Shown: one piece after another, positions 17,735-64,000 of the stretch
Layout: every line of letters starts with the position of its first letter
How positions within the stretch are numbered: position 1 is the first letter of the stretch
From: Eukaryota sp. TZLM1-RC
Lineage: Eukaryota; Protista; Metamonada: BaSk clade
Length of the DNA: 64,000 nt
Reading direction: 5' to 3'
Assembly (NCBI GenBank): GCA_040285825.1
Contig: JAUPSS010000004.1
Location: 434,001 to 498,000 of the forward strand
The notes under the pieces: generated by a model
What the model saw: only the letters and a program-made list of their open reading frames with translations
Databases searched by the model: none
Told to the model about the DNA's origin: nothing
Made by a program: the position numbers and the translations under genes

Positions 17735-17837
17735 CTTGTTCAAAAACAAGTATTTCTATTAGTAAATCTCTTTTTCTCTCTTTACTTCTTTGGTATTTCT
17801 GCCTAACGGCATCAATAATTATTGGCCCTCATTGCAG

Positions 17838-20622: not shown

Positions 20623-21584
20623 CTAACGGCATCAATAATGATTGGCCCTTCGTATTTCAGATGACTGTTCCCTCTGTCAACCACCCGTCTCTTTCTTCTA
20701 TGAAAGTTGAGAATGTTCTTTGTTCCTACAAGAGTGGAAGATCTATTCTGCTGTGACTCCTAAAAAAAAGCTTGTTCCAGCAAGGCTCTTGGTCGATTCT
20801 TTTCTGTTAGAGTCCCTATCTGTTCAGAAATCCGACGTCTCTTCCAGTGACGATGTTCTTCTTAGACATCTACAATGCGTCATATCGTTCGCCACGTACG
20901 AAGATTTTAGTCTGGCTATGCCAGAACTGAAGCTTGATGTCCGTATTGGTGACGTCCAAGAACGTATGTCTTGTTACCTGCGACGTTTCCTCCAGGTAAA
21001 GAGTAAGGCTTCCGGACTGAAGTTACCAGACACAGCTTTTCTGAATCGATTTGCCAGAGGAATTCTTCCCGTAGGTCTTCAACGTTCTCTTCTAGCGAAA
21101 ATTCGAGATGATGTATTTCCAGATCTTCACTCTCTTGTCGAAACCACTACTGATGAGCTGTTGGACTGCTCTAGGGTTGCTTCATGGACTCGTGGTTTGA
21201 AAACCTCATTTAGTGATGTGGCTGGTACTAAAACGAGGTTCTCTTGGCGCTCTCAGGATTTAAAAAATCAGTCGTGCTTCAAGTGCAACAGACCTGGACA
21301 CATCTCCCGCGATTGTCCAACTAAAAACAAACATGAGGTGAATTATGTGTGTCACACAAACGATGCACCAAAGAGGTTAACAAACCCCATATCTTCCCTC
21401 TATTGAGCCAGTACTGTATTTGTCTTCAGAAAAATGGGAAAAAGTAGTGTTGTTGTTGAACTCAAATTGAATTAGTAGGTTTCTATGTATTTCGACTGAT
21501 GACGTGATACTCATTTATGAATCAGTTTTATTAATAAACTCATATTTCTCTCTCCTTCGTGTGTTCATCTGCCTAACGTCATCA
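20623..21584 (+). mobile_element. Second, diverged Gag-only LTR element with truncated 5' LTR
   Basis: Last 12 nt of the 5' LTR (CTAACGGCATCA) at 20623-20634; PPT AAAATGGGAAAAAGTAG; 3' LTR 21448-21584 (TGTTG..CATCA). Confidence 0.9.
20661..21406 (+). pseudogene. gag: Gag with a 1-nt frameshift near 20720
   Basis: Homologous to 17838-18590 throughout; CFKCNRPGHISRDC. Confidence 0.85.
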
Positions 21585-23699: not shown

Positions 23700-24617
23700 C
23701 TATAATGAACTCAAATCCATGATGTGTGTAGCTCCGCTGTTTCAAATCAAGATCTTCACTCATTGTTATGGGAAAAGGGTATTTGTGAAAACCATTCATC
23801 AGAATTTTCACTTTTTGTAACCATTGTACCACAAAGAGTTGGACTCTGTGGGATGAATGAACCTTTTGTAACAAAAATAGAGATCATATTTGAATATCCC
23901 AATTAATCAATTATTATCAAAAGAATATTGTAATTGTTCAAATTCACCACAGCTCAATTTGTACCATGCTCTGAATCGTTTTAAATTGATAACTTATCGT
24001 TCTTCATTACACGATGCTGTTAGAAAGACTGTTTTCAATATGGCACAAATTGCAAAAATATGGTGTATCAAAGAGCCTCTGCTGAAAGAAACACTTTCTC
24101 TAAATAATTTTGGTTCTGATGATAGAGGTGATGTATATTGTGATTGGACTGATAATTCTGAAGCTATTGTTGACTTTGTCTCATGTAAAGTTGCAATTGA
24201 TACTTTGGTTCACAGAAGAAAACTTAATCCTGTGAGTGCTCTGGATTTTACAGCAAAAGAAAAACATAGAAAATATGATAAAGATATTCAAGAAGCTAAT
24301 GCTGGTAGAAATACACAGCTCGTTTTTATTGCTTTCCCATTTTCGATAATTAGAAGATTATCAGTTGAAGCAGAAACCTTTTTGAATGACTTCCACAAAA
24401 TGGTTCAAGAAAAAACAATGGAAAGATTTGATATTTGTTTATGGCGTTCTCGAATTCAATTTGCCATTATTGATAGATTACCTCGGTTTTTCAATCGAAT
24501 GAGAGGTGCTTTCGCTAGACAGCAAGTAGATCAAGATTTTGTAGAGGACAACTTGTTTCAATGATATTCGTCTCTTTAGTTATGAATTGATTTAATCAAG
24601 TGTGCTTGTTCAATAAA
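23700..24617 (+). mobile_element. Non-LTR family A 3' fragment (zinc knuckle + RLE)
   Basis: HDAVR, DDRGDVYCDW..AIVDFVSC, KEKHRKY; ends at AATAAA. Confidence 0.9.
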
Positions 24618-27049: not shown

Positions 27050-29940
27050 TTACTTGGCAGAGTTGATGAATTACACCAAGAAAATTGTCAACGTCAAGCC
27101 AAAAATGATTTATTTCAAGGTATTTTCCTAAATTCCAATTATGGAATATCAGTAGAAGGGTTCAAAAATGGTATTAATGGTGAAGAAAGTTTTGTTGTTC
27201 TACTCAAACAAAATTTAAATGCAGCTCATGTTGCAGCCATTGCTGCTTGTCTTGGAGAAAATCAGCATTGAAAAATACTTAATCTTGCAAGTAAACTCAA
27301 TTTATTGAATTTGCACACTTGATTAAATTAAATCATAACTAATGGGACGACTATCATTAAACCAAGATTTCCTCTACAAAATCTTGATTTGCTTGCTGTC
27401 TAGCTAAAGCTTCTCTAATTCGATTGAAAAACCGCGGTAATATATTAGTAATGGCAAATTGAATCCGTGAACGCCACAAAAAAATATCAAATCTTTTCAT
27501 TGTTTTTTCTTTCACCATTTTTTGGAAGTCATCCATAAAAGTTTCTGCTTCAACTGATAATCTTCCATTTATCGAAAATGGGAAAGCAATAAAAACCAGC
27601 TGTGTATTTCTATCGACATTTGCATCTTCAATTTCTTTATCATATTTTCTATGTTTTTCTTTTGCTTTAAAATCCAGAGCAGCCACAGGATTAAGTTTTC
27701 TTCTGTGAACCAAAGTATCGTTTGCAACATTACATGAGACAAAGTCAACAATAGCTTCAGAATTATCAATCCAATCACAGTATACATCACCTCTATCATC
27801 AGAACCAAAATTATTCAGAGAAAGTGTTTCTTTCAACAGGGGCTCTTTGATACACGATATCCTTGCAGTTTGTGCCATATTGAAAACAGTGTCTCTAACA
27901 GCATCATGTAATGAAGAACGATAAGTTATCAATTTAGAGCAATTTAGAGCATGGCGCAAAGTGAGTTGAGGTGAATTCGAACAAATACATTTTTCTTTTG
28001 ATAATAATTGGTTAATGGGGATGTTCAAATATAATCTCATTTTTGTTACAAATGCTTCATTAGTGGCACACAATCCAAATCTTCGTGGTACAATGGTTAC
28101 AAAAAGTGAAGAATCTGACGTCTTGTTTTCACAAACACCCTTTTCCAGTAACAATGAGTGAAGATCTTGATTTAAAACAGCCGAGCTGCAAATATTATTA
28201 TAAAGATCTTTTTCATACATTCCAGTCAATCTTTTCTGTAATGTTCGAAGAGTGTACTTCAAATTTAAAACATTTTTTTCTGGAATATTGCCATTGAATG
28301 ATTGGGGAAAACATCGACCCCATTTTTCTACATCAATTCTTGAAATTTCTTGATTTAATGCAAAAACAGTGGAACTTTGCGTTGTCATCAATAAATCTTC
28401 CCAATCTGCAAATCTTTCGGAAAACTCAAAGATTGCATTTCTGCATCCACCAACAAAAGCACACGAGGTAAGAATAGAAGCCTTCGTCCACCCTAAACCA
28501 CCATAATGTGGACTAAGGAAGCATGATCTGGAATTTAAAACATTTTACATCCCAGTAATTGAGACAGAACTTTCGCACGTAACTCATTAAACTTTTGAGC
28601 CAAAGGTCTAGTGACGAGAGGATTTGTAGATCGAAATATATGATTAAAATTGGAACTAAAACACAGTCTTATAATGGTAAATTTGATGTGTTTTTTTATA
28701 TCTAAATTCATCATTCGGTCAATTTTGTCAGAAATTGAGTTCAACTTTTCAAACAATTTTTTGGTAATTTCATCATTATTTCCTAAAAACGAACCCAAAT
28801 GACGAATAGCATCAATTGAATATAATTTGGCTTGAATTTCAATATCATCAATTATTGTGGAAACTGGAGAATTCGATAACAAAACACATTTAAGTAAATT
28901 AAGTCGGAGACCAATTTTGGTGAATAATTCTTTAAAACATACAGTTGCTTTTTTCACAATATTTAAATCACCAATAGGCACAACATCATCCATATATGCA
29001 ATCATTTTTAGTTAAGGAAACACCTCTTGAATTTGCAGTAGAATAGGATGGATGGCCAAACAAAACAAAAGAGGTCCTAACGGATCTCCTTGCTTTACGC
29101 CACTTGATGAACTCAAAATGTTGTTACCAAAATGTAAATTAGAATATGTGCAATAAGTTGATTGAAAATATGGTATTAATTCCGGCATATATTGCAATAG
29201 AGCACCATGGATACTGCGACGACTTAGTGAATTGAAAGCATTACTAAAATCCAATGACATGCAAACATTGAATTCATTTTGACGAAATAAGACATCATTA
29301 GCAAAAATCGCTGAAGAGACTCCATCTGTAGTATTTATACCATATTGAAAGGGTAATAAAATCTTTTTAGCTGTTTCATTGAACCTGCTTAAGCAACACG
29401 CAGAAAAAATATTGTGTAAGCTCTCAGAGACTGCAATAGGACGAACATCCATTTTTGAATTTTTGACAAGTGCAGTCAAACGAGAACTTCTCAATTCTTC
29501 TGGGTATTTGCGTTGACCAGATAATATTTGGTTGAAAAATTTAGTCAATAAACCAAGGCAATCTTCTGAAGAAATAATCGCGGCTTTTACATGATCAATA
29601 GTAATACCAGAAAGTCCGGCAGACTTACCACGAGGTAAGTAACAATATCAATAACACGGGTGCGATCGCACTCGCTGAATCATTAGAAGTTAATTCAAAA
29701 ATGGAAGATCTTTGGCCTGGATAAAACCACATCACCCATATTGGTTGTAAAGCTTTGGCTGATGCTTTGGTAGTTAATTTTACATTAAAAAAATTTTGGC
29801 TGGATCAGAACCCTATTGGTGACCAAGTTATTCAATACCTTGCTGAAGCTTTGAAGTTTAATAATTCATTGGACACTCTGTGGTTAGACCAAACTAATTG
29901 CACCCCAATAGGAGTTTTTGCTCTAACTCAAGCTTAAAGG
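27050..29940 (+). pseudogene. RNI-like LRR gene disrupted by a non-LTR insertion (pieces ~27050-27294 and 29637-29940)
   Basis: Removing the insert rejoins ILNLASN-NINNTGAIALAESLEVN; later repeats LDQNPIGDQVIQYLAEALKFNNSLDTLWL. Confidence 0.8.
27295..29636 (-). mobile_element. 5'-truncated non-LTR family A element (RT + zinc knuckle + RLE) with target-site duplication
   Basis: GVKQGDPLGPLLF, AYMDDV, HYGGLG, RGDV..IVD; TSD AAGTAA at 27289-27294 and 29637-29642; two frameshifts. Confidence 0.93.
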
Positions 29941-34070: not shown

Positions 34071-34179
34071 CAATTAAATGACGGACATCTTCCTCATTCA
34101 CTTGAACAGCAACTCCTTTTTTATTAAGCTCCGTAATGTTATTCACAATGGAGCTAACATAGCGAGGAAGAGCTTTCGA

Positions 34180-35205
34180 TATAGACTACAAGATTTTGCA
34201 CAACAAATTTGGTGTCAATATTTTCCCGACTCAGTTCAAGAGATTGCTCCACGAAATTTAGTTAAATTCAGGTATTGCGTGAATAAGCTTCAAAAATCGA
34301 CAATAATATTTGAAGGCTTGGATTATGAAGTACGTCTTGGCATGGTTAAGCAACAAAATCCCGCTTTTGCAAATTTTTTACTGGATGTTTGCGATAGTTC
34401 TGCTTCTTGTTTAATTAATCAAGTACCAAGAATTTATGGTTTGTTTCTCAATGACCCTTGCTTCTCATTATCTATGCGTCTTCGATCTTTAATTTGTCCT
34501 GATAATCTTACTCATGGATTAGTTTGTAAACATGGAAAGTCTGTCACTCCAACCCATTTAGTTGATTGTAATCAATTTATTACTTTTAGATCAAAAGTGC
34601 ATGATGTAGTTCGTGATCAGCTTTATTGTATTTTTAAATCCTCCTAGATTGAATCTTTTTCTAGAATCTTTGCTTTCAAATTTCGCTGATGAATCTGACA
34701 GAAATTCTTTTGGTGACAGCCGTGGTGATGTGCTAGTTCCCGGACTTGATGGATCAATGATCATTATTGATATCAGATCTACTGATGTATCAAACAGCTC
34801 AAATAAAAAGCTGGCACAATCTTATAACTCACCTTTACGAAGAGCCGAAGAAGCAAAAATTATTAAGTATACAGAAAACATCAAAAATCTGAATTCCAAC
34901 TCACATACTCAATACATTTATTGCCCTTTTGCTTTTTCTTTATTTGGAAGCTTGGGTAAAACTGCGCTATCTTTCTTGGATGATTTCTCATCTATTGTCA
35001 AAAATAGAACTGGAAGAATATTTGACCGAACCTTTTGGCAAAACAGAATTAGTATTTTCTATTTTTAAGGGAATGTATAGGTTTCTAGCTCGTTTTTATC
35101 ACTAGAAAAAATTTATGAAGAAAAAGCTGTAGGTAAGTTTTCTATAGTAGATGTGGAGTATGAGGAGAGTGATTTTTAGTTTTTTTTATAAATTTGTTTG
35201 AATAA
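34180..35205 (+). mobile_element. Non-LTR RLE 3' fragment, family B
   Basis: HDVVRDQLY, SRGDVLVPGLDGSMIIIDI, FWQNRI; ends at AATAAA. Confidence 0.88.
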
Positions 35206-40629: not shown

Positions 40630-41130
40630 TTTTAAGAAATTTCAAAAATTGATGTAGAAAAATGGGGTCGATGTTTTCCCCAATCATTCAATGGGAATAA
40701 TCCAGACAAGAATCTTTTAAATTTGAAGTACACTCTTCGAACATTACAGAAACGATTGACTGGAATGTATGAAAATGATCTTTATAATAATATATGCAGC
40801 TCGGCTGTTTTAAATCAAGATCTTCACTCATTGTTATTGGAAAAGGGTGTTTGTGAAAATAAGTCATCAGATTCTGCACTTTTTGTAACCATTGTACCAC
40901 GAAGATTTGGGTTGTGTGCCACTAATGAAGCATTTGTGAAAAAAAATGAGATTATATTTGAATACCCCATTAATCAATTATTATCAAAAGAAAAATGTAT
41001 TTGTTCGAATTCACCTCAACTCACTTTGCGCCATGTTCTGAATTGTTCTAAATTGATAACTTATCGTTCTTTATTACATGATGCTGTTAGAGACACTGTT
41101 TTCAATGTGGCACAAACAGCAAGAATATCG
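40630..41130 (+). mobile_element. Non-LTR family A internal fragment
   Basis: Near-identical to the reverse complement of 27855-28350. Confidence 0.9.
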
Positions 41131-42555
41131 TTCAATAACGCATCATATTTGTCTCATTTACAAACCTCAGCCTTGTCCACATGACCATTAGAACTAATTA
41201 AGACATCATCAAGGTAAAGTGAAGCAAAGAATTCAACAGTAGTAAAATCAACAACAGGGGAGGAATCCACAAAAGGAGATATTAAATCACGACGACAGGA
41301 ATCAAACAATTGATTATCACTATAAAGCAGATTTGTTCTCACTCTTCATTCTACTGTCAACTCTCACCTTTTCAATCTACTGCAGACCTTGGTGTCCAAA
41401 ATGTCATTGGTCAGTTATTGTCATTCAATGGATGAATTATATTCAGAACATTTATCAAGTTTTGCTTTAAGGTTTACAATATAGTGTTTGACAACAGTTT
41501 CAAACTTTATTCAATTGTGTGGAGTGTGCATGCATTATGAATTCTTGGATAAACGGAAAACTAAGAACCAGGGCTTTAACATAAAGAACAAGAATGATTA
41601 GACAGAAGTCAATCACTTTCAAGATAAACAGGTGATGACATGGCATCACATGATACAGTAAACTAATAACTACATATCTAATAATTCACTACAATTGGTT
41701 GCTAAAGAAATGCCGATTCATATACAAATATTGTGCTTCATCTCAATGCCAGCAAATCATTCCTGATTGGTTCTTCTCAGGATCTTGTGATAAACGATTC
41801 TGTTGTTTCTTTTACTAATTATAATAGTGATGCTTTCAAGTTTCTTGGTTACTGGGCAGGAAATGTGCCTCGAAATTCTGAAAGAATAACAAGCTTTCTT
41901 GGAAAATATGAAAATTGAACTTGATTCAATTTCTTAGATTTAGACAAACATATTAAATTTTTATGCTGAAAATTTGCTTTACTGGAAGAACAATCCACAT
42001 TTCAGGGGTCTTTTGATTTTGTTGTAACATTAGATTTTTGTCGTTCCTTTAATTCATTGAGAACAGCATTTTTTGCTGATTTATTGGTTGTAAAACCACG
42101 AAAGTTGTAAAATCACTTATTTTTATACAGCAAAATTTGTATCAATCAGTATTTTTGGGTGGAGACAGGAATTTTATATCATGAATCGTGTAATTCCTGA
42201 AGATTCTCATTTTTTAGTTTCCAGTTGCAAAACATACTTCAATGAGTTATCTTGTGAACTCGATAAATTGCCAACACACATCCGGACCAAACGTTTTTCC
42301 AAATCAATTCAAGAAACTCCAAACCGACCTCTTTTTAGTTTGCAGTTTTGCTGTAAAATGCTTCAACAAAAGTTGTCAAAGATTTTTGAAAGCTTGATTT
42401 TGGACTTTGATGGTCTTGGCTGTTGGTTATTGTTTGACATACAATGTAGAGTAACAGAAGTGTAATTTATAACGAAGAGGAATTGTATTCTCTCTTCTTA
42501 AGCTAACAGGCGGAATACTAATAACTAAACTATTAACTATAAATACTATTCAAGA

Positions 42556-45550
42556 CTAACACTGCCTTTTCCTCTCTTTCGAGCGACGAGCCCTGGAAGC
42601 TCTAGTCACAGGAGGTGAACTAATAGAATTATTACGCTTCTTGGGAGGAGCGGATTTAGTACGGCGACGTGCTTTTGAAGTCTTGATAAAGTCTTTATAC
42701 GCGGCAGTATTTTGGACTGTAGACACATGCTCAGTGGTGATCTCTTTTCCTGGCCATTGCACTTGGCAAAAGTCACCTTCCTGACTGAGCACTTTTTCAA
42801 TGATGTGTTCTTCGACATCACCTGCAGCGACCCAGGAGTGGAACTCATCGTTGGTGGGCAAGCTGGAGTGCCAGGGAGCTAAGTGTTTGACGCTAGCTTG
42901 GACAATCGTACCTGTGCAGAGATTCTTAATATTCACAGACGAATTGGATACGATTTCAGTAATTAGGAAGGGTCCTAAATAGTCTCCATGAAGCTTAGCG
43001 GAAGAGCCAGATGCTCTCAATACCAATTGACCAACTTCAAAAGGGTTTGGAGTTGACGATCTTGTTAGCTTGGAAGCTTTGGAAGCTTGATGGTGTGCTG
43101 CCTTTTCCTGTTTCTCTTTCAATCTTCGAAATTTAGATTGAATTTCTTGAATAAAAGATGACTCGGACGTCGAGCTTTCAATGATTTCAAGGATTTTGCC
43201 AGGGTCTGATCTGGGAGACACATCTGAGCCAAAGATCACTTGGTATGGAGTGTGGTTGGTTATTGAGCTCTTGGAAGAGTTGATCAATAATTGCACATAA
43301 GGCAAGTATTCAGACCACACATCGTAGGCATTGAAGTCTACGAGCAATTTCCGTAGGTTTTGCAGGATGTCTCTGTGTCGGCGCTCTACCAAGCCGTTGG
43401 ACGGAGAAAACCTAGGTATTGATTTTGACACCTCTATGCCCAAAAATTTGCTTAACTCGTCAAAGACAGCCTTGGAAAATTCGGGTCCATTATCGCTGTG
43501 GATTTGAAATGGAATACCAAAGATGGCACAGATTTTCCAAATTAATGCATCTGCAGTAAGATTGGCATTTATCTCTTTTAAAGGCACGATGATCGTGAAC
43601 CTAGAGAAGCTGTCGATAAATACGAGGATGTATTTGTAGCCTTCTTGATCTTCTGGAAGAGGACCAATGACGTCGGCGTTGACGCGAGCAAAAGGTCTGT
43701 CAGCCCACAATGAACCGGTTGGGGGGACGTGCAGTTTGGGAACTGGCTTAGTTTTCTGACAGGAGGGGCATTCTTGGACGTGCTTATTCATGTCGGTGAG
43801 CATGTTTGGCCACCAATAATCGCTGTTCCTGAGCTTGTTCAGGCTTTCAGCTTTGCTTGGATGACCTCCTTGCAGAAGTCCATGCAACAAGTTAAGGGTG
43901 TCCTTAATGAGTGATTTGGGAATCACTATCTTGTTGTCGTGAGTCATATATAAATCAAGATGATTGTTATGAACACAGTTGTTGAAAGAGGGGTCTTTGG
44001 AAGCTACGGCAAGCTTCTGTTCGGACCTAATCCTACAGAGCCATGGCTCGAAAATAGGCAGGTCGTTGGAACATCGTTCTCTGATGACCATGATACGTTC
44101 GAAGTTGTTTAAGTCTTCGATGTAGTATCTTTCATTTTCTGTTCCATCGATTTTATCAATGTAAAATATTGGATGAAAATTTGGAGGCATTTGATGGGAC
44201 AAATGATTGATCTCTTGATGGTCTATAGGCGGAACTATTCGAGACAACATATCAGCCCAGAAGTTATCTTCCCCTTTGGTATGTACCAAATCGAAGCAGA
44301 ATTCAGAGAATATGGGTAACCATCTTGTTACAATTCTGTTCTTCTCAGGAGCCGTGAACATGTAGGTAAGGTTTTGATGGTCTGTGAATATAACCAGTTT
44401 CCTTCCTTTCAAGTAGTTTTCAAAACCACTTTGAGTTAACATGAGTAGGATAGCATAGAGTTCCTTTTGGTTTGTCGGCCAGTTCTTTTGCGAGTTGGTT
44501 AACAACCGGCTGAAGAAGCTGATAGGCCTACATTTCCTGTTGATCAGGGGGGTACCGGGGTCGTCGACTTGTTCGATTTGTTCCCAAATGACGCCGCCTA
44601 CAGCAATGTCGGATGCGTCGCAACTAATTAAAATTTGGTTTTCCAGCGGAGGTAAGCTGAGTGGCATGTGCTTTGCTATCAGTTGTTTGATCTTTTGAAG
44701 GAGTCCGTCGTGCATGTCGGTCCATTGAAGGCGTTGCGCGCGGGGTTTGGGTTTAACTTTGGAGTTATTTCCAACCTTCTTAGTCAATCTGATGATGGGA
44801 GCGATGAGCTCAGATACCTGAGGAAGCCATTCTCTAATGAAGTTGACTGATCCTACGAGGCTGCGGACGTCTTTGATTGTCTTTGGTCTAGGTAGATTCA
44901 ACAAAGATTCAACGCGAGTGGGATCGATAGTCCGTTGTTTGTTTTGGAAAACACTGCCCAGTATCTTTATTGGGTGTCTGGAAGACACGAAATGGCACTT
45001 TGGAAGTCCCAAGGAAACTCTTTTGCATCTGGCTTGATCAAGGACGCGACGGAGGCGTTCAATGAATTCGTCAAAGGTTGAACCTATGATTATGATGTCA
45101 TCTATGTAAATGAAGACACCGTCTCCAGAGAAGATGTCAGCCATGACGTTTTGGAAAACGGCTGGGACATTCTTTAGGCCAAAAGCTGCACGTTTGAACA
45201 TGATGCTTTTGCCAGGAATGCTCAGGGCTGTTTTCTGCCAATCCTTTTCGGCAATCTTGAGTTGCCAAAAGGCTTTGGGGAGGTCAAGGGTGCCTATGTA
45301 GTTCGCTTGGGAGAGAAATACCAGCACATCGGAGATCCTTGGAAGGTTGGGCTCAACAGGAATGGTGTTGGCGTTGACTCCGTCCTTGCCACTATAGTCA
45401 CCGGTAAGGCGGGGCTTACGGTGATCTGGGTAGACCACTAGACAGACAGGGGAGCTGAACTCATGGTTCGATGGGACAGCAAATCCTGAGTCTACGAGTT
45501 CGTCGAAAATTTGGTTAGCGACCTCTAGCCTGGCTGGATTCAGGGTCCTG
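42556..45550 (-). CDS. pol: Pol part: RT, RNase H, integrase, GPF motif, degenerate chromodomain
   Basis: LDLPKAFWQ, FGLKN, YIDD, CDAS, TDHQNL, HHCC finger, DVIGP, SDNGPEF, NGLVER, GPF. Confidence 0.95.
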
Positions 45551-48500
45551 GGGGTCTTCTAACTCTGACGTCTTCGTTGTAGAAGTTGATTTCCATGGGA
45601 GGGCAATCAATACCTTCAGCATGAGGCTTGAGGGTAAATACGTCTTCGAACTCCTTCAAAGTTTGAAGTAGGGACTTCTTGAAATGGTCGTTGTCGAGGT
45701 TGATGGTACAACCAGATGAGTTGATGTGTTCCAACCAACGTGTGGAAACGTTGACGACTTCCGAAGCTTGTGATATTCGATGATCGAATTCAGCTTCAGG
45801 TAATAGTAATGTGCGACAGGCGTCGTCCATTCTAATATAAATGCCCTTGTTGTTCATCAGCCCAAGGTGACTCAACAAGTCAGCACCAATGAGAATGGTC
45901 TCATGTCCAGGAACGATGCTGAACTTGTGTTTCACGTGTACAATCTGGGTAACACTACCTAGTCTAATGCTAAGGGTTCCAGAAGCAGTACCAAGGGACT
46001 GTGAGGTAGTTCCATCAGCAATCTTGTATGAAATGGTTTCGTTGGAACGTGCCATGTTACAATTACTGATGACGTCTTCCGTGACTACTGAGCATGTTGC
46101 ACCAGAGTCAATTATGCCTTTAACTTCGACATTGTTGATCAAGAAGTTTAATTGTAGGCAGTTGTGATTCATGGATTGTACCATAAAAATTGTATCAGAA
46201 TCATGTCCATTTAAGTCGGCTTGTTCTGAGAAGAAGTGAGCCTGACTGTTGAGTGTCTTGGTAGGTTCCAAGTTGGCAAGTGGATTGATAAGAGAATCTT
46301 TCCATGCTGAACTTTCTGTGTGTGGTTGTGTTGTTGTTGTAGGGGGTATGGTTTCTAAAGTACATAAATAGTGACGGGAACGTTTATTGTAAGAAGAGCC
46401 TCTGCCTCTGCCGCGAGTACCTCTTCGACTACGGAAACCAGGACCTCTAGAACTTCTACCTCGAGCTTGTTGTTGAGCTTGTTGCTCTCTCCATTTCTTG
46501 CTCCTTTGGCAGTCTTCACTGGGGCACCTTTCGGTCGGATGGCCCTTTTTCTTACAGAAGTTGCATTGGACATCAGCGGCCTGGGAAGACGATTGTGGTA
46601 GGCTTCCTCCTCTCTTACTTTGTTTTGGGCGTTTACCTGGACCAGAACCTCGTGGTCTGGGGATGTCAGGTGGGGAGGGAACGACCATGGGAGGTCGGCG
46701 AGAGGCCTGCTGGTGAGTTAATTGGTTCTGATAGGTGAAATCGACATGGTTCAGTTGTTCCATGAACGATCTGGCGTTACAGAAATTCTCGTATTCAATT
46801 TGGAGAACACTAAAGAATTCGCCAAGGGTGTGCCCATCGCATGAGTAGTGGGAGGGAGAGGACCAGATCCTGAGGAGTCTGTCTCTGATAGGGATAATTT
46901 CTACGCTTTCTAAGACATGAGTAGCAACTACCCAGTCTGGAAGTCTATCAGCTGGAGGAGTGGAGCTTATGGAGAATGTTCTCAATTGTTGAGAGATGCC
47001 CCTAAATTCTTGGATGGCGGTGGAGCGAGTCAGAACTCTGCCTATGTTGACCATGAAGTCAATCCATCTATTGCCATAATCTCTTTCCGACCAGTCCATG
47101 TTGGTTGCGAGGAGAGCTCGATTAGCCTCATCCAGTCTGCTGAATTGGGTTCTTCTTAGAATTTGAGCCCAAATGATGCGTTCATCTCTTGAGGTAGGAA
47201 CCGTGGGAGAAGAGATAGCTAGGTGAGCACCTTGGTATCGTAGCGCATTTAACACCTCGGGGGTGACACATTCAGCGAGGCCTCGGGGGTTGATCCTCAT
47301 GGCTTGACGGAACAAGTCCCATTCGTGAACTGGTTCTCCAGTGATGTTACCAAAATACTCATCGATCGGTGGTTGGGAACCTTCTCTAGCTAGTTCTAAT
47401 TCTTCACGTAGTCTGGCAACTTCGTTAGCTAGAGCTATCTGGGCTGGATCCTCAACGTTACCTCTCGTTTCTCTTAAGACTCGGTCGGTACGACTCCAGA
47501 GAATGAATTTGTTGACAAACTTTAGGAGTTTATCAGCGTCTCTCAAATCACAAGCCTCAAGATATGGACGTTTAGGACGGTCCCTACGTCTGTCATCTCG
47601 GTCTCTTGATCCCATCATTGAAGAGAGGAGAAGGCTACTTTCGTATGTGCCCGAGAAAGGTGAATGATGTGAGGAAATGGAGGATGTTGAACCTGTCGTG
47701 GAAGGTGTAGGTAGGGGTTGAGGAGCTCGACTGACGGGAGTGATGGGAGCAGGTACTGCATCAGAAGATGTGGTGGGGGTGGGTGATTCACTGCTCACAG
47801 TGGCAACGTCGTCGTCAGCTTGTTCCATAGCAGATTGGTTGGGGTTAGAGGTTTCCGTGATAGGAAATGAATCAGTTTCCATAGGAGGTTGTGGTGATTC
47901 AGGAGGTTGAGCGGAGGAAGATGGAGCTTCACTCTGTTGAGGTTCAGGGGAAGGTACTGTCTCTTCAATCTGGGCTGGAACCTGATAAGAAGAGATCGCT
48001 GGTTGAACCAAGCGTGTTTTCTCTATACGGCCTTCTACCATTACCCACTTTAACATCCTGGATTCTATGCATCCAGGGAAAACGGTGACGAGCTGGAGGG
48101 CTCTTTGAAGATTACCTGATCTTCTGTGGTCAGGACCACAATATGAAGCTATATGGTCAGGACGTCTGTCGTAAAGAAAGAGTCTTTCACCATATGTGGT
48201 TTCGGTAAACCACCACCCTGTTCTATAATCTCTGTCGATAAGGATATCGAGAGATGCGTTGTACCCAGGGCTGAACCTAGGGTATGGGCAAGGGTTGTGA
48301 ACATTTATGAAGAGGTTGTCTTCATCTCCAGCGAAGCGTCTGAATACTCCTTCTCGAGTAGTTCTCATGAACCTAACTCCGGGTCTTGGTTCGTGAGTTG
48401 GTTCTGGGTCATTCCTGGAGGTTTCTGGGGTGATCCTTTCGTCGGTAAGAAATGGACCTATTCTGGGAGAGATCCATAATCCTAAGTCGTTCTCGACTTT

Positions 48501-49688
48501 GGGACCGTAGAAAGGAGGCCGTTTGTTGCTCATCTCCGTGGGAGGGATGGCTTCTGGATCCTCTGGAATGACTCGTGAGTCCCTATATCTAGCGTAAGGG
48601 TTGTGCTGACGGGAAGCACCATGATGAACACTCGAGCTAGCGTGGGAGCTAGTTTGGGAAGGGGTAAGTCGAGCAGGTGTAGAGGATGTTCCTCTTCTAG
48701 CTTCAATCTCTCTGTCCAATCTTTTTCTGTGTTCCCAGTTTCGTTCTTCTTGGAGAAAACGCTCTATATATTCTTTAGAGACCTCACCAGGAATTTTGTC
48801 AATTTCAGAAGAAGGTGCCGTGGGAGGGACCTGATGTTGAGGTAGAGGGGAGAATTCCTTGGGAGGTTCCTCGTACTCAACCAAATCTGAAAAGATTTGT
48901 TCGTACCTTTTCCTTTGCTCTTCGGAAAGAAACGAAGGAAGGTTCGAAAGGCTAGGAATGGAATCACTAGCCTGGTGAGGGGAAACAGACAGATTATTAA
49001 CTCCTCTTACTGTTGATGTAGTAAGAGGAGATCCTGAAGTTGAGACAGCAGGATTTTGGATAGTTCTCCTAACGGTTGGAACTGCAGGGAGAAGCTGTTG
49101 AGAGTGAGAGGGTGGAACCTCAGAACTGGATGGAAGGGATGAAGATGGTACTTCAATGGCCTTCTTAGAGGAGGAAGAGGGTTGGTCTTCCAATCCTTCT
49201 TTTGCAGTGAGAGAAGGTTGAACAGTCTCTCTGCTCTGAGTAGAAGGTGAAGGTGGTACTTCCGAACTTCTTCCAGGGAGGGGAGAAGGTGGGACTTCAG
49301 ATGCCCCCAATTGCGAAGGTGGAAGAGGAACAACGGAATCCTCTACGTCCTCGTCGTCGTAGGAGACCAACGAAGGACTTCTTCCTTCCGAAGGGACGGA
49401 ATCCTTGGGAGGGTTGTCTCCTTCGGCAGGAACAGAATCCTGAGGAGGGGAGCTTCCTTCCATGGGAACGGAATCCTCTGGAAGGGAATTGTCTTCCTTT
49501 GGGGTGGAACCCTCAGGGAGAGTTGCTTCAGGAAGCGCAGAAGCTTCAACCGAAGAAGGAGGCACGGAAGCAGGGTCTGTGGTTAGTGGTGAGGAAGAGG
49601 GACCAGTCTCTTCCTCAAGGATCCTACGCTGAGCCGGGGACGACCCAATACGTATTGATGGTCTTGGCTGTTGGTTATTGTTTGACAT
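45540..49688 (-). CDS. gag: Gag-protease part of the polyprotein, with very long N-terminal extension
   Basis: CNFCKKKGHPTERC knuckle; aspartic protease IIDSGAT..ILIGADLL; frame broken at the C5 run 45550-45554. Confidence 0.92.
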   Translation of the reverse strand: MSNNNQQPRPSIRIGSSPAQRRILEEETGPSSSPLTTDPASVPPSSVEASALPEATLPEGSTPKEDNSLPEDSVPMEGSSPPQDSVPAEGDNPPKDSVPSEGRSPSLVSYDDEDVEDSVVPLPPSQLGASEVPPSPLPGRSSEVPPSPSTQSRETVQPSLTAKEGLEDQPSSSSKKAIEVPSSSLPSSSEVPPSHSQQLLPAVPTVRRTIQNPAVSTSGSPLTTSTVRGVNNLSVSPHQASDSIPSLSNLPSFLSEEQRKRYEQIFSDLVEYEEPPKEFSPLPQHQVPPTAPSSEIDKIPGEVSKEYIERFLQEERNWEHRKRLDREIEARRGTSSTPARLTPSQTSSHASSSVHHGASRQHNPYARYRDSRVIPEDPEAIPPTEMSNKRPPFYGPKVENDLGLWISPRIGPFLTDERITPETSRNDPEPTHEPRPGVRFMRTTREGVFRRFAGDEDNLFINVHNPCPYPRFSPGYNASLDILIDRDYRTGWWFTETTYGERLFLYDRRPDHIASYCGPDHRRSGNLQRALQLVTVFPGCIESRMLKWVMVEGRIEKTRLVQPAISSYQVPAQIEETVPSPEPQQSEAPSSSAQPPESPQPPMETDSFPITETSNPNQSAMEQADDDVATVSSESPTPTTSSDAVPAPITPVSRAPQPLPTPSTTGSTSSISSHHSPFSGTYESSLLLSSMMGSRDRDDRRRDRPKRPYLEACDLRDADKLLKFVNKFILWSRTDRVLRETRGNVEDPAQIALANEVARLREELELAREGSQPPIDEYFGNITGEPVHEWDLFRQAMRINPRGLAECVTPEVLNALRYQGAHLAISSPTVPTSRDERIIWAQILRRTQFSRLDEANRALLATNMDWSERDYGNRWIDFMVNIGRVLTRSTAIQEFRGISQQLRTFSISSTPPADRLPDWVVATHVLESVEIIPIRDRLLRIWSSPSHYSCDGHTLGEFFSVLQIEYENFCNARSFMEQLNHVDFTYQNQLTHQQASRRPPMVVPSPPDIPRPRGSGPGKRPKQSKRGGSLPQSSSQAADVQCNFCKKKGHPTERCPSEDCQRSKKWREQQAQQQARGRSSRGPGFRSRRGTRGRGRGSSYNKRSRHYLCTLETIPPTTTTQPHTESSAWKDSLINPLANLEPTKTLNSQAHFFSEQADLNGHDSDTIFMVQSMNHNCLQLNFLINNVEVKGIIDSGATCSVVTEDVISNCNMARSNETISYKIADGTTSQSLGTASGTLSIRLGSVTQIVHVKHKFSIVPGHETILIGADLLSHLGLMNNKGIYIRMDDACRTLLLPEAEFDHRISQASEVVNVSTRWLEHINSSGCTINLDNDHFKKSLLQTLKEFEDVFTLKPHAEGIDCPPMEINFYNEDVRVRRPPGP

Positions 49689-51144
49689 ACAATGTAGAGT
49701 AACAGAAGTGTAATTTATAACGAAGAGGAATTGTATTCTCTCTTCTTAAGCTAACAGGCGGAATACTAATAACTAAACTATTAACTATAAATACTATTCA
49801 AGACTAACAACTTGACTTGGCCAAGAAAAAGAATCCCGCTTTTGCAAATCTTTTACAAGATATGTGTGACAGTACTTCTTCTGCCTTTGCAACAACAATT
49901 CCTGAAGTTTATAGTACTCTCTAACTCATTCTGCTTGGACTTTGAATATGATTTCGTTCCTTTTTCTGACCTGATAATTTACTTCATAATTGAATTTTTC
50001 AATGTTCTCAAAAAATTACCATTACTCACTTGTTAAATTGTAAACATTTTATTACTTTTTGAAGCAAGGTTCATGATGCTGTAAGAAACCAATTATACTG
50101 TATGTGTAAGTGTCATAGAATCGAATTTTTTTTGGAACTCCTGTTGTCAAATCTGTTTGATGCTGAAAATAATTTTCATCAGAACAATAGAGGTGATGTT
50201 ATATTACCTGGATTAGATGGAAGCTTCATGCTATTGGATGTAATGTCTGTTGATCCTTGTGATGACTCAAATGAAAGGCTTGCTAATTCTGAAATTCATA
50301 ATTCACTTTCACATGTTGAAAATTTCAAAATCAACAAATACAATGAACCTTTGTTCTAATTGGCCAGTCAACAGCATGCAAAATACTATTTGTATCCATT
50401 TGTGTTTTCTCTTTTTGGTTCGCTTTCTCCAACGACTATACGTTTTTTGGAAGATTTTGAAATGATTGTAAAGAGAACTTTTAACAGATTGTTGTGGCAA
50501 AATAGAATTGTGTTTCCTATTTTCAAGAAGATGTTGAAGATGTTTTCTGATGCTTTGCCTTCTTTTCGTTCTCACTATGAGGGAGAAGCATCTAGTTGTT
50601 TTGTTTATGGAGAAATGGATTATTGAGATGTTTATTTATAAGTCTTCTGATAAATAAATATAAACGAAAGAACCTATCTTATTATCTAACCTGCATTGGC
50701 CACAATCCTCCAATTGTTCATATCTAAGTGTGATGTTTCCTTTATAAGATTTGTCTGTTATAAAAAGTCAGCAATCAATGATGTTGATGCTGTATGGTTA
50801 GACATTGTACAGAATAGAGATAAAAGATGAATGTATTTATTAAATTTCACTGGCCCTTATAAAGGCCGTCACAAGTGAAGTCTATAGTAGACTAATTGTC
50901 CACAGTGCAACAATATCCTTTTTTGTTATGCTTGAACTGTGTTTCAAAAAATGTAATTTCGGTGTAGTTCCTGAAGTTGAACATCATGAAATTCCCGATG
51001 ATGTTGGGCTCTAACCATTATCCATAGATTGGAAAAATTCGATCTTTAACCAGCAGTATATGGATAGAAGTGCGGCTGGCCAAAAATGAATCTTCTTGAT
51101 TTGCACCTAATCACACTTCAAATCAATAACTCAGATCGTGCACA

Positions 51145-56899: not shown

Positions 56900-59800
56900 A
56901 TGCATCTCCATACTAACCCAACAGTAATTACTGTGGCCCATAAGAGTAATCCAAGCCTGGTCGCTCCAATCCTACGCAATGCTGACCGCACTTCCTGTGC
57001 TCGCTTTGCCAAAGAATTGCGTGACTTCGCTATCCGTATGTTCCTGTCCCGCCCCGTCTCTTCAACTAATGTTCAGCTTTCCCGACGTAGCTTTCGTTCC
57101 TCTCGCCGCTCTACTCGCCGCGAAGAACCCGTCGAAGTAGCTCTGCCCGACGAAGAATCCAATCCCGTCGAAGAAAACCCTGAAGAAGAAGTAAACCCTG
57201 AAGACGTCCAATACAATCTCTACGATTCTATTGATGAAGCCCCCGAACCGGAATCTCTTGACTTGTTCTCCGAAGATGATGAGAACCCAGAAAACCTGTA
57301 TGAGCTTGTGGATGCTCATAACCCTGTTGCTGACGCTGAAGCCCTGATGTTACAATACATCCCTAGATGTATCGCCCCTGAAGTTCTCGATACATTCCTA
57401 ATAATCCACCAGATTTCCCCTAGAAAACCCAAGAAGATTCTTAAATATATCCTGTCCTGTACCAAGATAGAGGATACAGCCCAAGCCTACAAGCTGTATG
57501 ACCGTGTAACCCTGAACTTAAACTGCCGAGATGCTGAAGAGGCCATTTCGAAGTATACCCGTGACTTTATGAGAGTAACCCGGTAGACCCCTACTCTGCA
57601 GAGCAATAGCCAAGCTCTTACCCGTAAATTCCTGAATGGAATCCGTCCTGAACCTTTGAGAAGGTTATTGAAGTCTGAAGCAGAAGACTTCCTTATCTCC
57701 TCTATCCCCGAAATCCTAAAGCGTTTAACCGATCTCTTGGCTGAATATCATAGACCTTATTCCAAACATTACCAGCTATTTGAAGATAGACTAGCTAACA
57801 AGTATTCTGGAAATCCTAATCGAAGAAGGAATAACCAAAGGTCCCGAAGAACTCCTATTAGGAGGTATGTAACTCCGAACCAAGAACCACGAAGCACTGG
57901 AAGTAATGCTTCCCGATCTACTCAACCGCAAGCCCGTACTGATCATTCTAGCAAATTTCCCCTTTCTGAGACCATTTGTAACTATTGCAAGAAACCCGGA
58001 CATGTAGTCCGCGATTGCCCTGACCCAAACTGCAAATTGAGCCAAGTTAACAAGAAGAAACCTTATAAGAATCCAAAGAACCCTACTCACTTTAGAACTC
58101 ATTCTACCCGTAATAAGACTCAATCGAATTCTATTGTCGAATCCATTAAGGAAGGATTGAAAGAAGACTACTCGATCGACGAAACTTATTATTTTTGTAC
58201 TGTAACCCACTCCAGCTCATCTGACACTGAAGATTTAGCTTATAGCGTATCATTAAACCCTCTTTCAATAAACTCTGATAGCTACGCTGAAGACACTTCA
58301 ACCTCTCCTAGCCTTAATACCTTTCTCTCCGACTCCAACTGCTATGATCTGGACGATGTGTTTGAAAATCTAGATTTTATCCTCCCTGGCCGAGATTTCC
58401 CCTCATTTGAAGACTCAACGTATGTTGAACCTAACAAACCACAGGTTGCCAAGCAGAAGACACCCTCTTTTCCTGCTCGTTGTGCTAGAAACAAAGTACT
58501 GAAATCTACTCGGGCAGCCGCGATGCAGGACGAAAGGGTGAGCTCCTGTGAAGCTTCTGTCGTTAAAAAGGTAACTGATTCTTCACTAACTTCCAGTGAT
58601 TCTTTAGAGACTGATTTGCCTCAGATACATGACCAGAGGAAAGCCCTGAGGGATAACATCCATGATTTCTCGTTGGAGAGAGCAAGTTCTCACCTCGATT
58701 CTGATATGGCCCTCCTGGACGCTGACTGTGCACAACGACCTGGTCCATCTGATAAAAACTCATCTCTCGAAGAATCTTCTGAAAGTTCTATAACTGAATC
58801 TGCAAATACGTTAGTCGCAGCTAAAATCTCCGCCTCTGCTCCTGCCTGTCTAATAATCCCTGATAAGTCTAAGATCTCTTTCAGGCTGAAAGAACTGAAT
58901 CAACCTATGGACAAAAACTTGTTACACCTGAAGATATTTACCAAACCTGATCACTTTCTGTATGGTATGGTTGACACTGGAGCAACCGTATCCTGTATTT
59001 CCGAAGAACTCGCTGAAGTAGCCAAGCTCCACATTGAGAACCAAACCACCTCTTTAAGTTTAGCGGATGGAAAGCTAATTGATGTTAAGCTAGCCAAAGG
59101 AAGATTTGCCTTCATGTTAGGAGGAACCGCTAAACTAACCTATGTAACCTTGAGACTCTGTCTATTACCCTGTCCCAACAACTTTATTCTCGGTTGTGAC
59201 GCCCTGAAAAGCCTTGGTTTATTCACTGAAGATTTTCTGATTATTAATCTTTCAACCCACAACTTACAGATTCAAGAAGATGAATCTATTCCTGACTGTT
59301 TCCTACCTGATTCCCAGAACGTTTGCTCTCACGATGACCTATCTGATACCTCGACTGCCCCTGAATTCGTCCAAGCTTTAAGTGACGAACTATTAAAGAA
59401 GTTACCTGACATTGAGAAAACCAGCTTCAATCTCAATGATACTGCCCTGTCCGTAGAAGTTAAGAAACTACTGCTTAAGTTCCCTGATATTTTTGCTAAA
59501 CTACCCGCTCCTGAAGGAATAAAATGTGAACCAATGAAGTTAGAATTCTATGATGAATCCTCAATCGTTAGTAAGAAAGCAAGATTCTTACCACCAGACA
59601 AGCTAAAGATTGCTAATGAAGAAATTGATACCCTACTGAAGAACGGCGTTGCTGTCCCATATGATGGTTCATTCGCCTCACCAATCCATCTTGTTTGTGC
59701 CCCTGGCAAGGCACCACGATTAACAGGAGATTATTCAGGACACAAAGGTATTAACGATCTAACCATCCCTGTCCCTGCTGACTTACCAAGAATTACAGAT

Positions 59801-62662
59801 GTCTGTGCCTTCCTGTCTTCCGCCACCTATGTCGCAACTCTAGATCTCCCCAAAGCCTTCTGGCAATTGAATCTACGACCAGAGGATCAACCCAAGACTG
59901 CCATCGTTATACCTGGAAGGAAGGTAATGTTTACCCGTGCCGCTTTCGGTTTAAAGAATGTACCAGCCATCTTCCAAAACTTAATGAGAAAAATATTCGA
60001 TTGTGACGAAGTTTTTATCTATCTCGACGATATAATCGTAGCTGCTGAAAACAAAACAGATTTCTTGAACCGCCTAGAGTATATATTTATGAGAGCCCGA
60101 GACTACTGTGTCCGAATTGGCCTTCACAAGTGCGCCTTTCAGACCAAAGACTACCCAATTCGTGTATTAGGAACTATTTTCGAGAAAGGAACTCGAAGAA
60201 TCTGCCCCTCTAGAATAGTAAAGCTGAATAAAATTCCAATCCCAACTTCCGTCCCAGAACTACGATCTTTTGTAGGTGCAATCAACTTCGTTCGAGATTG
60301 GTTACCCGCAGTAAGCACTGAACTCGCCCCGCTCACTGAACTGCTGAAAGGATCTCCCCGCAAGATACTCTTGAACCAACAACAGATTGAATGCTTTCAG
60401 AATATTAAGAAGTTGATATCAAATAGCGTGCCACTAGAGCTTCCCGATGATACTTCTCAAATATTAGTCTCTACTGATGCTTCAGAGAAAGGCATCGCCG
60501 GCATTATCTGGAAAGAACTTTCCCCTTCCGAACCTGGAACCTGTCTTTCAGAAAGAAATTTAGCCCCTCTATCTTTTTATTCCAGGATTCTCACCCCTTC
60601 CCAGCAACGATGGTCTACTTTACAGAAGGAATTATTCGCCATCGTAATGACCTTGAACCAGCCAAACCTGTCGTCTTTCTTGCAAACTAAGCACCTCACT
60701 TTGTTTTGCGATCACAAAAATTTGTCCTACCTATTCTCTTGCCCTGACTCCAACCGTGTAGTTCTCCGCTGGATCCCTGTATTGCAGTCCTTCTCATTTG
60801 ATTGTGTACACGTAAACGGACCAAATAATCATTGGGCTGATTATTTATCGCGGTCACTCCCTAAGAAAGAAGAAAAACCTGAAAAGAAGAAAACGAAGAC
60901 CAGAAGTGCTAAAGCAAGTGCGAAGGTAAACTCCTTGATCTCTATCGAAGACGGGAAGACCCCCTTCTACCAAGTTACCAGTTATGATCCTGAAGAACAC
61001 TACAGAGGACTCCCGGCTAGATTACGAACTGCTTCCTACCTAGAGGTGGCTTCATATTATAACCCAGATTGTCGCTCCTTACCTTGTCCATGTCAAGCCG
61101 GACATGGTTTCCACTATTGCCCTGGCGAGGTACGTTTCTGTGAAGTTGTTAACGATAAATATTATACTGAAGTAGGAAACCGTAACCCTGACACCATGCT
61201 TACCCATATCAAGGAACCAGTATCACCAATCATAGTCAATATCAATGTTTCACAAGCCGTTATCCCCATTGTCCCGATCCCTCTTATCTGTTATGACGCT
61301 AAGACCCTTCTATACCCTCCAAACTTGATCTTCCCCTTTTCTCCAATCGGAACCTATTTCAACTTCCATGCCATTGACACTCCACCTTCATGGTATTCCC
61401 TTAATCGTCGCGACGCCAGAAGACTCTTGACTGCTACCGCCCGTCGTTCCGAATCAGACCCATTCGCCATTCTTAACTCCCTGGAACATTTTTCTTCACT
61501 CGATCGTAGGGACATCGATAACATTCAAAATGGATCCTCTCCTTATCATTTTATTCTCTCTACTGACATATGCTTTATTTATCAACATGTGTTTCCTCTT
61601 TCCAAGTCAAAAGATCCTTACGCCTCTGTCGCTCATATGCACCCTGATACCCCAATTCATCCAAAGATCCATAATCGTTCTATTCCGATAGCCGATATCA
61701 TCCAACATGGAAACTGGAATAACCGCCTTTATTTTTATGACCCAACTCTCCCTGCTCGCTCTTATCTCCCTGAAGTGATTCCGCCTAATGCTTTCTTCAT
61801 AAAACTTAATTGCTTCCCTGCCTGTGTAACCTTAGGACAGTTAATTAACAATATCGACCCCCTGCATCTAGCTCCCCTGCCACTCGAGATGATTCCCTAT
61901 ACTCCTGATCACGCCTCCGATATCTCCTTTAACCTAGAAACCTTATTTGTTAATGACGATTTATATAAACTCACCGAGAATGATATCCTGACATTACCTA
62001 TTAACGAATTCTTAAGATTTGGAATCTTGAATCCCAGCCAACGAAGTTCAATTCCTCTCTCTAGGTATAGCCTCCAATTCTACGACGAAATCTACGAAGA
62101 AGTCTTGTATTCTCCTTTCCTCAGCTCCCGATCCTGGTGCGACGCCGATATAGAACATGAACTAGAAATGCAAGATTTGATAGGAGATGAAAACGCCGGA
62201 TCATCCATCCCCTGTTATATCCCTCCTCCTATTTTTGGTGCCGCCGTTAACTCTCACCGACTGCTACAGCTTCATAACTTTTCCTCCGAGTTCATTCCCG
62301 ACTATCTAATGTACCCTTTATTTGTTTACATCTATCATTATTGTGATGATGGTAATGCGTGCCCCCATCCCGTGGTGACTTACCAATATTCTTACAAAGA
62401 AGTGGAAAATAGTTCTATTCCAAAACAACTACTTACTCCCGTCCCTCGAAATTTTTACCTTTCTTCGAAACTCAACTCATGCAATACCTGCCCACACGTA
62501 GATAGTATTCTCAGATCCTTGCTAGACGAACTCTCGTTAGCTAATTACATACGAACAACCAAGCCTTTAGACACCATACCCTATAACTTTAAGATCGCTT
62601 TCTATGATAAAGAACTCCAAGCCGTAGTCCTCTTCCAGACAGCTCCCCGACGGAACTTATAG
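56900..62662 (+). CDS. gag-pol: Gag-Pol polyprotein (in-frame TAG at 57584-57586) with knuckle, protease, RT, RNase H and a large unknown domain
   Basis: ORFs 56900 and 57656 share a frame; CNYCKKPGHVVRDC, VDTGAT, LDLPKAFWQ, YLDD, TDAS, CDHKNL, WADYLSR. Confidence 0.92.
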
Positions 62663-64000
62663 TAAAGAAATGCACTCCCTCATTCCATTCCCAGACCCTG
62701 ACCAGTCCATTGAACCAGTTTGCTCTATTGTCAATGTGACCACGAGATCTCAAGTTCCCCAAGAAGAAACTGAAGAAGACACTCAAGAAGTTGACCCTGA
62801 ACCCAACACGCCTGAAACAACTTCATCAGACTTCATCGACCAGAACTCTGCCCACTCTCCAGCCGAAGCCTTCTTAAGAAAGATATTTAATGAACAAAAG
62901 AAGTTGTTAGATGATGACGAACTTTTCTCCAACTGTGTAATTGACGAAAAGACTGGCTTAAAACTAACTCCAGATAAGAAGATAATCATTCCCCCTTTGA
63001 TGATCCCTGAAATACTAAACCACGTTCACGGCTCTACTGAAGCAGGACACCCAGCCTTGATGAACGCATGGAAGTCGTTAAGAAATTCTGACTTTTTCTG
63101 GCCTTTCATCAAACGAGACTTAGAACAACATGTCCGTCAATGTATTCCATGTCAAAAGAATTCAACTGTACCCAAAACCCAAATCTCCTCTTCCGGCTCA
63201 CTGACTCAATCCCGTAGACCCTTCGAGTATCTCCATTGTGATACGATAGGTCCTATCTCTACTGACTCTCGCAAGAACAAATATGTTCTACATTTCGTAG
63301 ATGCTTTTTCTAAATTCAGTATCTTATGTCCTGTACCAGACATCAAATCCATCACTGTAGCTGATGCCATCCTCTCTAACGTATACGCAACCTTCGGTGC
63401 TCCCAGAGCAATTCATTCTGATAACGGAACTGAATTTTGCAATGCCGTTTTTGACTCTCTTTGTAAGTTGCTCAATATCACCCACTCTACGTCCATTCCG
63501 CATTTTCACCAGTCGAATGGTTTAGTTGAACGCCAACATCGTATCATCCTACAGAACCTCAGGAAGGTACTTTTAGACTTTGTCGATTATGACAATTGGT
63601 CAGACTACCTTCCATTTTGCCAGATAATCGCCAACAGTACTTTCAGAAAATCCCTTAATGCCTCTCCCTACGAACTCATCTTTGGCTCTGATACCTCTCC
63701 CCGACTGCTTCCTGTCGAAGTAACGAAATCGTTAGAGTTAAGACCCGATCAGCCTGATGTCCCAAACTATATGTCTTCCCTGTCCAAACTTTCCCTAACT
63801 ATCAAGGAAAAGTGGAATTCTGTCGCAAACAACACTCCTCCCTCTGACATTTTACCTGAACCTAAGTTCAAGCCTCAACCTGGCTCTCGAGTCTTTGTCC
63901 TCCGAGAACACCCTAACAAGCTCCATGGTCATTTCGCTGGACCTTATATTGTTAAAAAGATAATTTCCCGTAGTTCCCTCATGGTAGAAAACCCAATAAC
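62640..64000 (+). CDS. pol: Integrase (frameshifted continuation, open to the window end; absent from the ORF track)
   Basis: Manual translation VNVTTRSQ..HVHGSTEAGHP..CIPCQK..HCDTIGP..HSDNGTEF..NGLVERQH..GPY. Confidence 0.92.

Follow-up and report, generated by a model that had tools for sequence, protein, structure and literature searches.

Cargo carried between RNase H and integrase is already known from retroviruses and LTR retrotransposons. Non-primate lentiviruses encode a dUTPase at this position, as an extra protein that is a proteolytic product of Gag-Pol (PMC4531489). Plant Tat elements and the oomycete elements Archon and Chronos are Ty3/Gypsy retrotransposons with an added domain beside their native RNase H (PMC5348765), and the DAM-LTR elements, Ty3/Gypsy elements of unicellular eukaryotes, carry captured cargo, placed in one clade between the reverse transcriptase (RT) and integrase (10.64898/2026.05.21.726589). 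At the level of function, an analogy is offered by the VANC proteins, accessory proteins that VANDAL transposons encode and that relieve host silencing with family specificity (PMC6719617).

Here, we describe a Ty3/Gypsy-type element that carries about 600 amino acids of no known family at this junction, found in a 64,000-nucleotide stretch of DNA (the window) from Eukaryota sp. TZLM1-RC. The host is a free-living anaerobic protist. It is a skoliomonad metamonad isolate (PMC11603281). The insert is new in sequence, not in position. The lentiviral dUTPase is viral, spans about 130 aa and belongs to a known enzyme family, whereas this insert sits in an LTR retrotransposon of a protist, spans 530-600 aa and gave no dUTPase match in Pfam, NCBIfam or PHROGs. 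It is about four times longer than the added domain of Tat, Archon and Chronos and, unlike that domain, which is a second RNase H, it has no RNase H match by Pfam or profile. The Asn-Pro-Pro catalytic triplet of the DAM-LTR cargo occurs in none of 17 insert rows, which also lack a Dam family match. As VANC proteins are separate genes of plant DNA transposons with no observed sequence link to the insert, any likeness to them would be functional only. A further comparison is provided by the short-linker Ty3/Gypsy elements of the same protists (the window element 42407-49809 and 12 others), which have the same domain order and a related RT but a spacer of 103-123 aa, against 607-637 aa in insert-bearing relatives. 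We found no earlier description of the insert sequence in the accessible literature on Skoliomonas retrotransposons and on gypsy/LTR elements of free-living metamonads, where the supplements of one preprint (10.1101/2023.05.03.539051) could list repeat families.

The insert and the element that carries it

The features of the element are as follows, in window coordinates.

56900..60853 (+): gag with CCHC knuckle, aspartic protease, RT and RNase H, Ty3/Gypsy-type, in one frame (Pfam)
60854..60925 (+): Lys/Glu-rich linker after RNase H, in all subfamilies (sequence comparison)
60926..60937 (+): VNSL, candidate N-terminal protease site by its motif; in short-linker relatives the sole motif of this kind is at this place
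60926..62729 (+): insert, about 600 aa from site to site, no known family (open for 571 codons from 60920, up to a 1-nt shift)
60920..61309 (+): N-terminal part specific to subfamily A, aa 1-130, with CxxLPCPCQxGHGFHYC at 61070-61120 (profile against subfamily B, probability 0.1)
61379..61906 (+): shared core 1, aa 154-329, with LSTD, DxxQxxNxNxRxYF, YLP, NA, TLG and HLxPLP (A against B profile)
62285..62587 (+): shared core 2, aa 456-556, with invariant H473, Y474, D477, C481, C524 and H526; candidate single metal site (A against B profile)
62630..62636 (+): 1-nt frameshift private to the window copy (relatives' proteins, X1 contigs)
62718..62750 (+): VCSIVNVTTRS, candidate C-terminal protease site by its motif, followed by an acidic linker
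62874..63998 (+): integrase with H2C2 zinc domain and rve core, continuing past the window end (Pfam)

The plus-strand frame 57587-62662 encodes the CCHC knuckle, aspartic protease, RT and RNase H, followed by 580 residues without a Pfam family; integrase coding continues one frame over, from 62628 onward. Both the order gag-protease-RT-RNase H-integrase (Pfam) and the closest PDB sequence matches, the Ty3 RT entries 7q5b and 4ol8, place the element in Ty3/Gypsy; its 3' end lies outside the window. After WADYLSR (60833-60853) and the Lys/Glu-rich linker comes VNSL (60926-60937). The first-pass annotation had estimated about 570 open codons after RNase H, which agrees with the 571 measured. The frame is free of stops until a TAG at 62660-62662, and the other five frames carry 30-49 stops each over the insert. 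The short linker that it had ascribed to the related element at 42408 was also borne out, as the spacer from RNase H to the integrase His is 119 aa in element 42407-49809.

Pro, Tyr, Ile and Asn are abundant in the insert. Its net charge is -22, whereas RT-RNase H has +7 and the integrase +6, an acidity that fits protein binding better than nucleic-acid binding. The initial description of the insert as Cys/His-rich does not hold: its Cys content (2.6%) equals that of RT-RNase H (2.6%; integrase, 3.0%), and its densest 20-aa stretch of Cys and His was equalled in 11% of 2000 shuffles. The His content is 3.6%, compared with 1.5% in RT-RNase H and 4.1% in the integrase. The three clusters singled out at first, CRSLPCPCQAGHGFHYC at 61070-61120, HYCDDGNACPH at 62336-62368 and CNTCPH at 62480-62497, do lie where they had been placed, but in the first one the next Cys follows seven residues on and not three. 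The highest 19-aa Kyte-Doolittle value in the insert is 1.2-1.75, with no segment clearly membrane-spanning, and neither an envelope-like signal nor a membrane anchor was found in it.

The frameshift reported near 62635 is seen at about 62630-62636, but it is no feature of the family: LPR(Q/S/R)L(P/L)D is read in frame across the junction in all five of the other subfamily-A proteins that extend over it. Over 62573-62755, a contig of run X1 is identical to the window, and a second has a loose end at 62637 that joins in the read-through frame; the runs including X1 represent one sample, possibly the window's own source. RNase H, insert and integrase start are in one predicted frame in ten relatives (P0004, P0005, P0013, P0019, P0020, P0033, P0048, P0064, P0068 and P0069), so the shift is most likely a real lesion of the window copy, and a programmed frameshift is rejected, given the in-frame read-through of the relatives. 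In P0068, one uninterrupted frame extends from gag as far as the integrase core. The frame of the window copy is also broken by a TAG in gag (57584-57586); position 57584 is A in contigs of run X1, and P0004 has Lys at that codon. With this gag stop and the frameshift before the integrase, the window's copy is dead.

A Ser/Asp-rich spacer of about 290 aa (58190-58900, +), without a family match, separates the element's zinc knuckle from its protease, and subfamily B has one too. A perfect 12-nt palindrome lies at the gag start of both Gypsy elements of the window, at 56922-56933 (CAGTAATTACTG) and 49646-49657 (CAATACGTATTG); the two elements have the same palindrome after the 5' LTR. In element 42407-49809 (minus strand) it marks the inner edge of the 5' LTR, the expected position of the primer-binding site, and the gag frame begins upstream of it. 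This young copy has identical LTRs of 155 nt each and a very long gag region, rich in Pro and Ser, which takes up about 1400 aa ahead of the RT and contains 36-nt repeats. Its protease and RT frames are split by a frameshift near 45550. Several broken copies of a non-LTR retrotransposon lie at 7970-9106, 23881-24564, 27357-29647, 34078-35068 and 40636-41184, where the RT, Cys/His and restriction-like endonuclease motifs were judged by eye. The window also contains two relics with gag only, at 17766-18590 and 20711-21406.

Relatives, divergence and conserved cores

Relatives were gathered by homolog searches, an exhaustive phmmer search and cluster look-ups, and are known as gene models (predicted proteins), not from their DNA. 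A profile built from 17 insert rows matches 25 of 76 rows, although a single locus may be represented by more than one row. Three of the 25 are the window's own, which leaves 22 other predicted proteins in three subfamilies; the presence of the insert in other copies, which had been proposed as a check, is thus established. All of them are predicted proteins of Eukaryota sp. TZLM1-RC. Outside this isolate, the homolog searches, phmmer search and cluster look-ups returned no relative of the insert; with the single window protein as query, phmmer against 1.84 billion representatives gave 8 matches, all from TZLM1-RC. Subfamily A comprises the window, P0004, P0005 and fragments (78-93% identical), while subfamilies B1 and B2 are about 50% identical mutually and 24-29% identical to A.

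In a quick tree of RT-RNase H, the insert-bearing elements form one clade (aLRT 100) of 16 among 45 rows. The insert is seen in 11 of the 16 and the other 5 stop short of the junction; none of the 29 rows outside the clade matches the insert profile. The spacer from RNase H to the integrase His was measurable in 17 of 61 rows and spans 103-123 aa in 13 of them and 487-637 aa in 4. In P0017 (subfamily B2), nearly the whole insert is missing in frame with both flanks kept, and several other relatives' proteins are missing parts of it, which may reflect decay of the copies or splicing in the gene models. A nested transposable element finds no support, with the same in-frame junction in three subfamilies, no mobile-element domain and no flanking direct repeat of at least 25 nt in a search that covered direct repeats.

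Adjoining the clade on the tree are three elements of a second isolate, GEM-RC1 (aLRT 94, unstarred), two of which have their own long inserts between RNase H and integrase: that of P0047 (aa ~800-1210) has several CxxC/His clusters, and that of P0026 (aa ~450-790) has a coiled-coil-like stretch and an acidic region. Against the TZLM1-RC insert family, both score within the shuffle range in profile comparison, so the sequences suggest either that the junction took up cargo more than once or that the cargos diverged past detection. An LSSDL/LSTDL likeness between the TZLM1-RC and P0047 inserts also fell inside the shuffle scores.

Two lines of evidence describe how the insert evolves. In contigs over the insert, 27 of 40 listed differences are synonymous, against 23-31% expected, and 25 fall at third codon positions among the 40 of 44 differences listed. 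The crude pN/pS of 0.14-0.21, from this small variant set of one sample and 40 of its 44 differences, agrees with the purifying selection that was to be checked. Between subfamilies, the insert diverges fast: the window's element is 83% identical to P0068 and P0048 in RNase H, 52-57% in the integrase N-terminus and 29-32% in the insert, a divergence that may also reflect relaxed constraint.

Despite this, 56 columns are invariant in the 10 full rows across the three subfamilies, and two cores are shared. Core 1 was matched between A and B profiles with a probability of 99.7 (E 6.5e-26), and its invariant polar residues are N186, S214, T215, D216, R253, D259, Q262, N265, N267, R269, N290, N297 and H316. 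Core 2 was matched with E 2.6e-4; its score of 34.8 exceeds those of all 30 column shuffles, of which the highest was 24.6. H473, C481, C524 and H526, all in core 2, are invariant in all 10 full rows. The proposed zinc binding thus keeps a candidate basis in these four residues alone but loses its most striking one, since the first cluster is confined to one subfamily: CxxLPCPCQxGHGFHYC is present only in 6 subfamily-A rows, and 9 subfamily-B rows have a different cluster, CxxxCxxxxxCxH, elsewhere.

The identity and possible role of the insert

Database searches did not connect the insert to a known family. Pfam, NCBIfam and PHROGs gave no match over it, and Pfam in particular no mobile-element domain. 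The PDB searched by sequence gave 0 matches with the single window protein, and the alignment query matched only RT, knuckle and integrase. Metagenome contigs, viral contigs and phage records contained no relative, so that the host or viral homologs that the first-pass annotation had thought worth seeking did not appear among them. The ESM Atlas gave a best value of 0.76 with the window's insert and nothing usable for core 1 of P0048. AlphaFold2 reached a pLDDT of 30.3 with the single window sequence and 34.4 with a 16-row alignment led by the P0048 insert. Both models are unusable, which makes the fold searches uninformative: those with the pLDDT 34.4 model gave nothing usable, the model being too poor to inform on the fold.

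Profile comparison gave no support for an origin of the insert by duplication within the element (RT, RNase H, integrase, gag or protease), nor for an internal repeat. In agreement with the novelty first proposed, sequence gave no match to a known RNase H: Pfam found none in the insert, and the profile probability against the elements' own RNase H was 0.1-0.6. Reading LSTD as the STDAS start of an RNase H was likewise not supported, in a profile test that lacks fold-level power. RNase H and integrase share a fold. As a control, these two scored a probability of only 0.7, so the test is blind to kinship at the fold level. NPP, P-loop, GxGxxG, FxGxG, HExxH and deaminase patterns are absent from all 17 insert rows; HNH-like, 2H and AlkB patterns do find matches, in part or all of the rows, but are not specific enough to carry weight.

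The flanks bear on whether the insert leaves Pol. AKVNSLI and IVNVTTRS had been named as its cleavage-site-like boundaries; both are where they had been placed and are cleavage-like by motif. Of 13 short-linker elements, 9 have the motif [IV][NKCAGST][SAHT][LIMV] in the 35 aa that follow RNase H (background 0.14). Of 10 insert-bearing rows, 9 have it a short way ahead of the first integrase helix (background 0.23), at 29-51 aa in the rows with a recognised helix anchor, with P0013 counted for its equal offset from RNase H. The pattern was written after the flanks were seen, and the rows represent three related groups. At the N-flank the motif is present in subfamily A and in 0 of 8 subfamily-B rows, which have LC[CHY][MT]M there. 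Motifs of this kind can mark protease sites. Release of the insert from Pol is plausible on these motifs, and the lentiviral dUTPase (PMC4531489) sets a precedent for a product cut out here. Probably, the protease encoded by the element frees the insert, which then travels in the particle in numbers equal to Gag.

We favor the reading, with a probability of roughly 0.4, that the insert is a selected, lineage-restricted Gag-Pol module that is released by the protease, borne in the particle, non-enzymatic and bound to a host factor. As intact relatives have no gag-pol frameshift, their single frame would produce the insert one-to-one with Gag. It would then be packaged in the particle and freed at both flanks by the element's own protease, and the released insert would bind a host factor and could thereby shield the element's RNA, particle or new cDNA from host defence. 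The putative metal site of H473, C481, C524 and H526 would be a structural feature. Fast divergence and acidic charge may fit the binding of a host protein, and host-factor binding with counter-defence is suggested because the insert diverges faster than the enzymes, has subfamily-specific parts, is acidic, contains no screened catalytic motif and belongs to a junction whose cargo differs between isolates. It is tempting to extend this reading, although we consider the extension doubtful, to a swappable cargo bay: the RNase H-integrase junction of the TZLM1-RC clade would accommodate protease-released counter-defence proteins, the insert would be a new fold, delivered in the particle at one copy per Gag and disarming a metamonad defence against retroelements, and the GEM-RC1 sisters would carry unrelated proteins.

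The strongest rival, possible though less probable than host-factor binding, is a captured and strongly diverged enzyme or pseudo-enzyme (of nucleotide metabolism, nucleic-acid modification or a nuclease type) that aids reverse transcription in the particle. It stays strong because core 1 is dense in invariant polar residues, like an active site, and because the cargos described at the junction are enzymes or enzyme folds: the second RNase H (PMC5348765), dUTPase (PMC4531489) and Dam (10.64898/2026.05.21.726589). The profile test that scored RNase H against integrase at only 0.7 is blind to fold, and the pLDDT values of 30.3 and 34.4 leave room for an enzyme fold. The absence of Pfam, NCBIfam, PHROG and PDB sequence matches and of the catalytic motifs screened for argues against it, as does an identity of about 30% between subfamilies, against 83% in RNase H, which is loose for an enzyme that matters.

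We regard as rather improbable that the insert is an integration-targeting or nuclear-delivery module, held with the integrase as an N-terminal extension or partner and steering insertion sites. The insert does directly precede the integrase and has a candidate metal site, and the N-flank motif of subfamily A lies where short-linker elements have their RT/integrase boundary motif, so a single cut would leave the insert on the integrase. However, 9 of 10 rows have both a second cleavage-like motif and an acidic low-complexity linker between insert and integrase, the insert itself is acidic, and the integrase tail could itself target: in P0064, P0069, P0022 and P0048 it has a segment, followed by a basic patch, that is weakly chromodomain-like (E 0.015 against the Pfam-positive tail of P0041) and is possibly a degenerate chromodomain.

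A structural or chaperone part of the particle without a host target (a scaffold, an assembly aid or a factor for cell-to-cell spreading) would agree with the single gag-pol frame of P0068, which would yield one insert per Gag, and with a soluble insert, given that no 19-aa segment is clearly membrane-spanning. We judge it quite unlikely, as short-linker relatives of the same layout multiply without the insert, including the copy in the window with identical 155-nt LTRs, and the insert has no envelope-like signal or membrane anchor. An inert passenger or nested sequence, kept open only by the downstream integrase, can account for the stop-free frame that any insert at this junction must keep, for the proteins that lack parts of it and for a richness in Pro, His and Tyr that tracks C-rich strand bias, but it is highly improbable in view of the synonymous excess, the 56 invariant columns in 10 full rows of three subfamilies, the constant junction and the lack of flanking direct repeats of at least 25 nt.

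The stable gain of new domains by LTR retrotransposons has been described as rare (PMC9289625), and the cargos that we found described at the RNase H-integrase junction are recognisable enzymes; here the cargo is 530-600 aa without a detected relative. The isolates are in culture (PMC11603281), so the role of the insert is open to experiment. If the insert is an enzyme, it would be one missed by current profiles. If, as we favor, the insert is set free to interact with the host, its partner would give a lead on how metamonads control retroelements.
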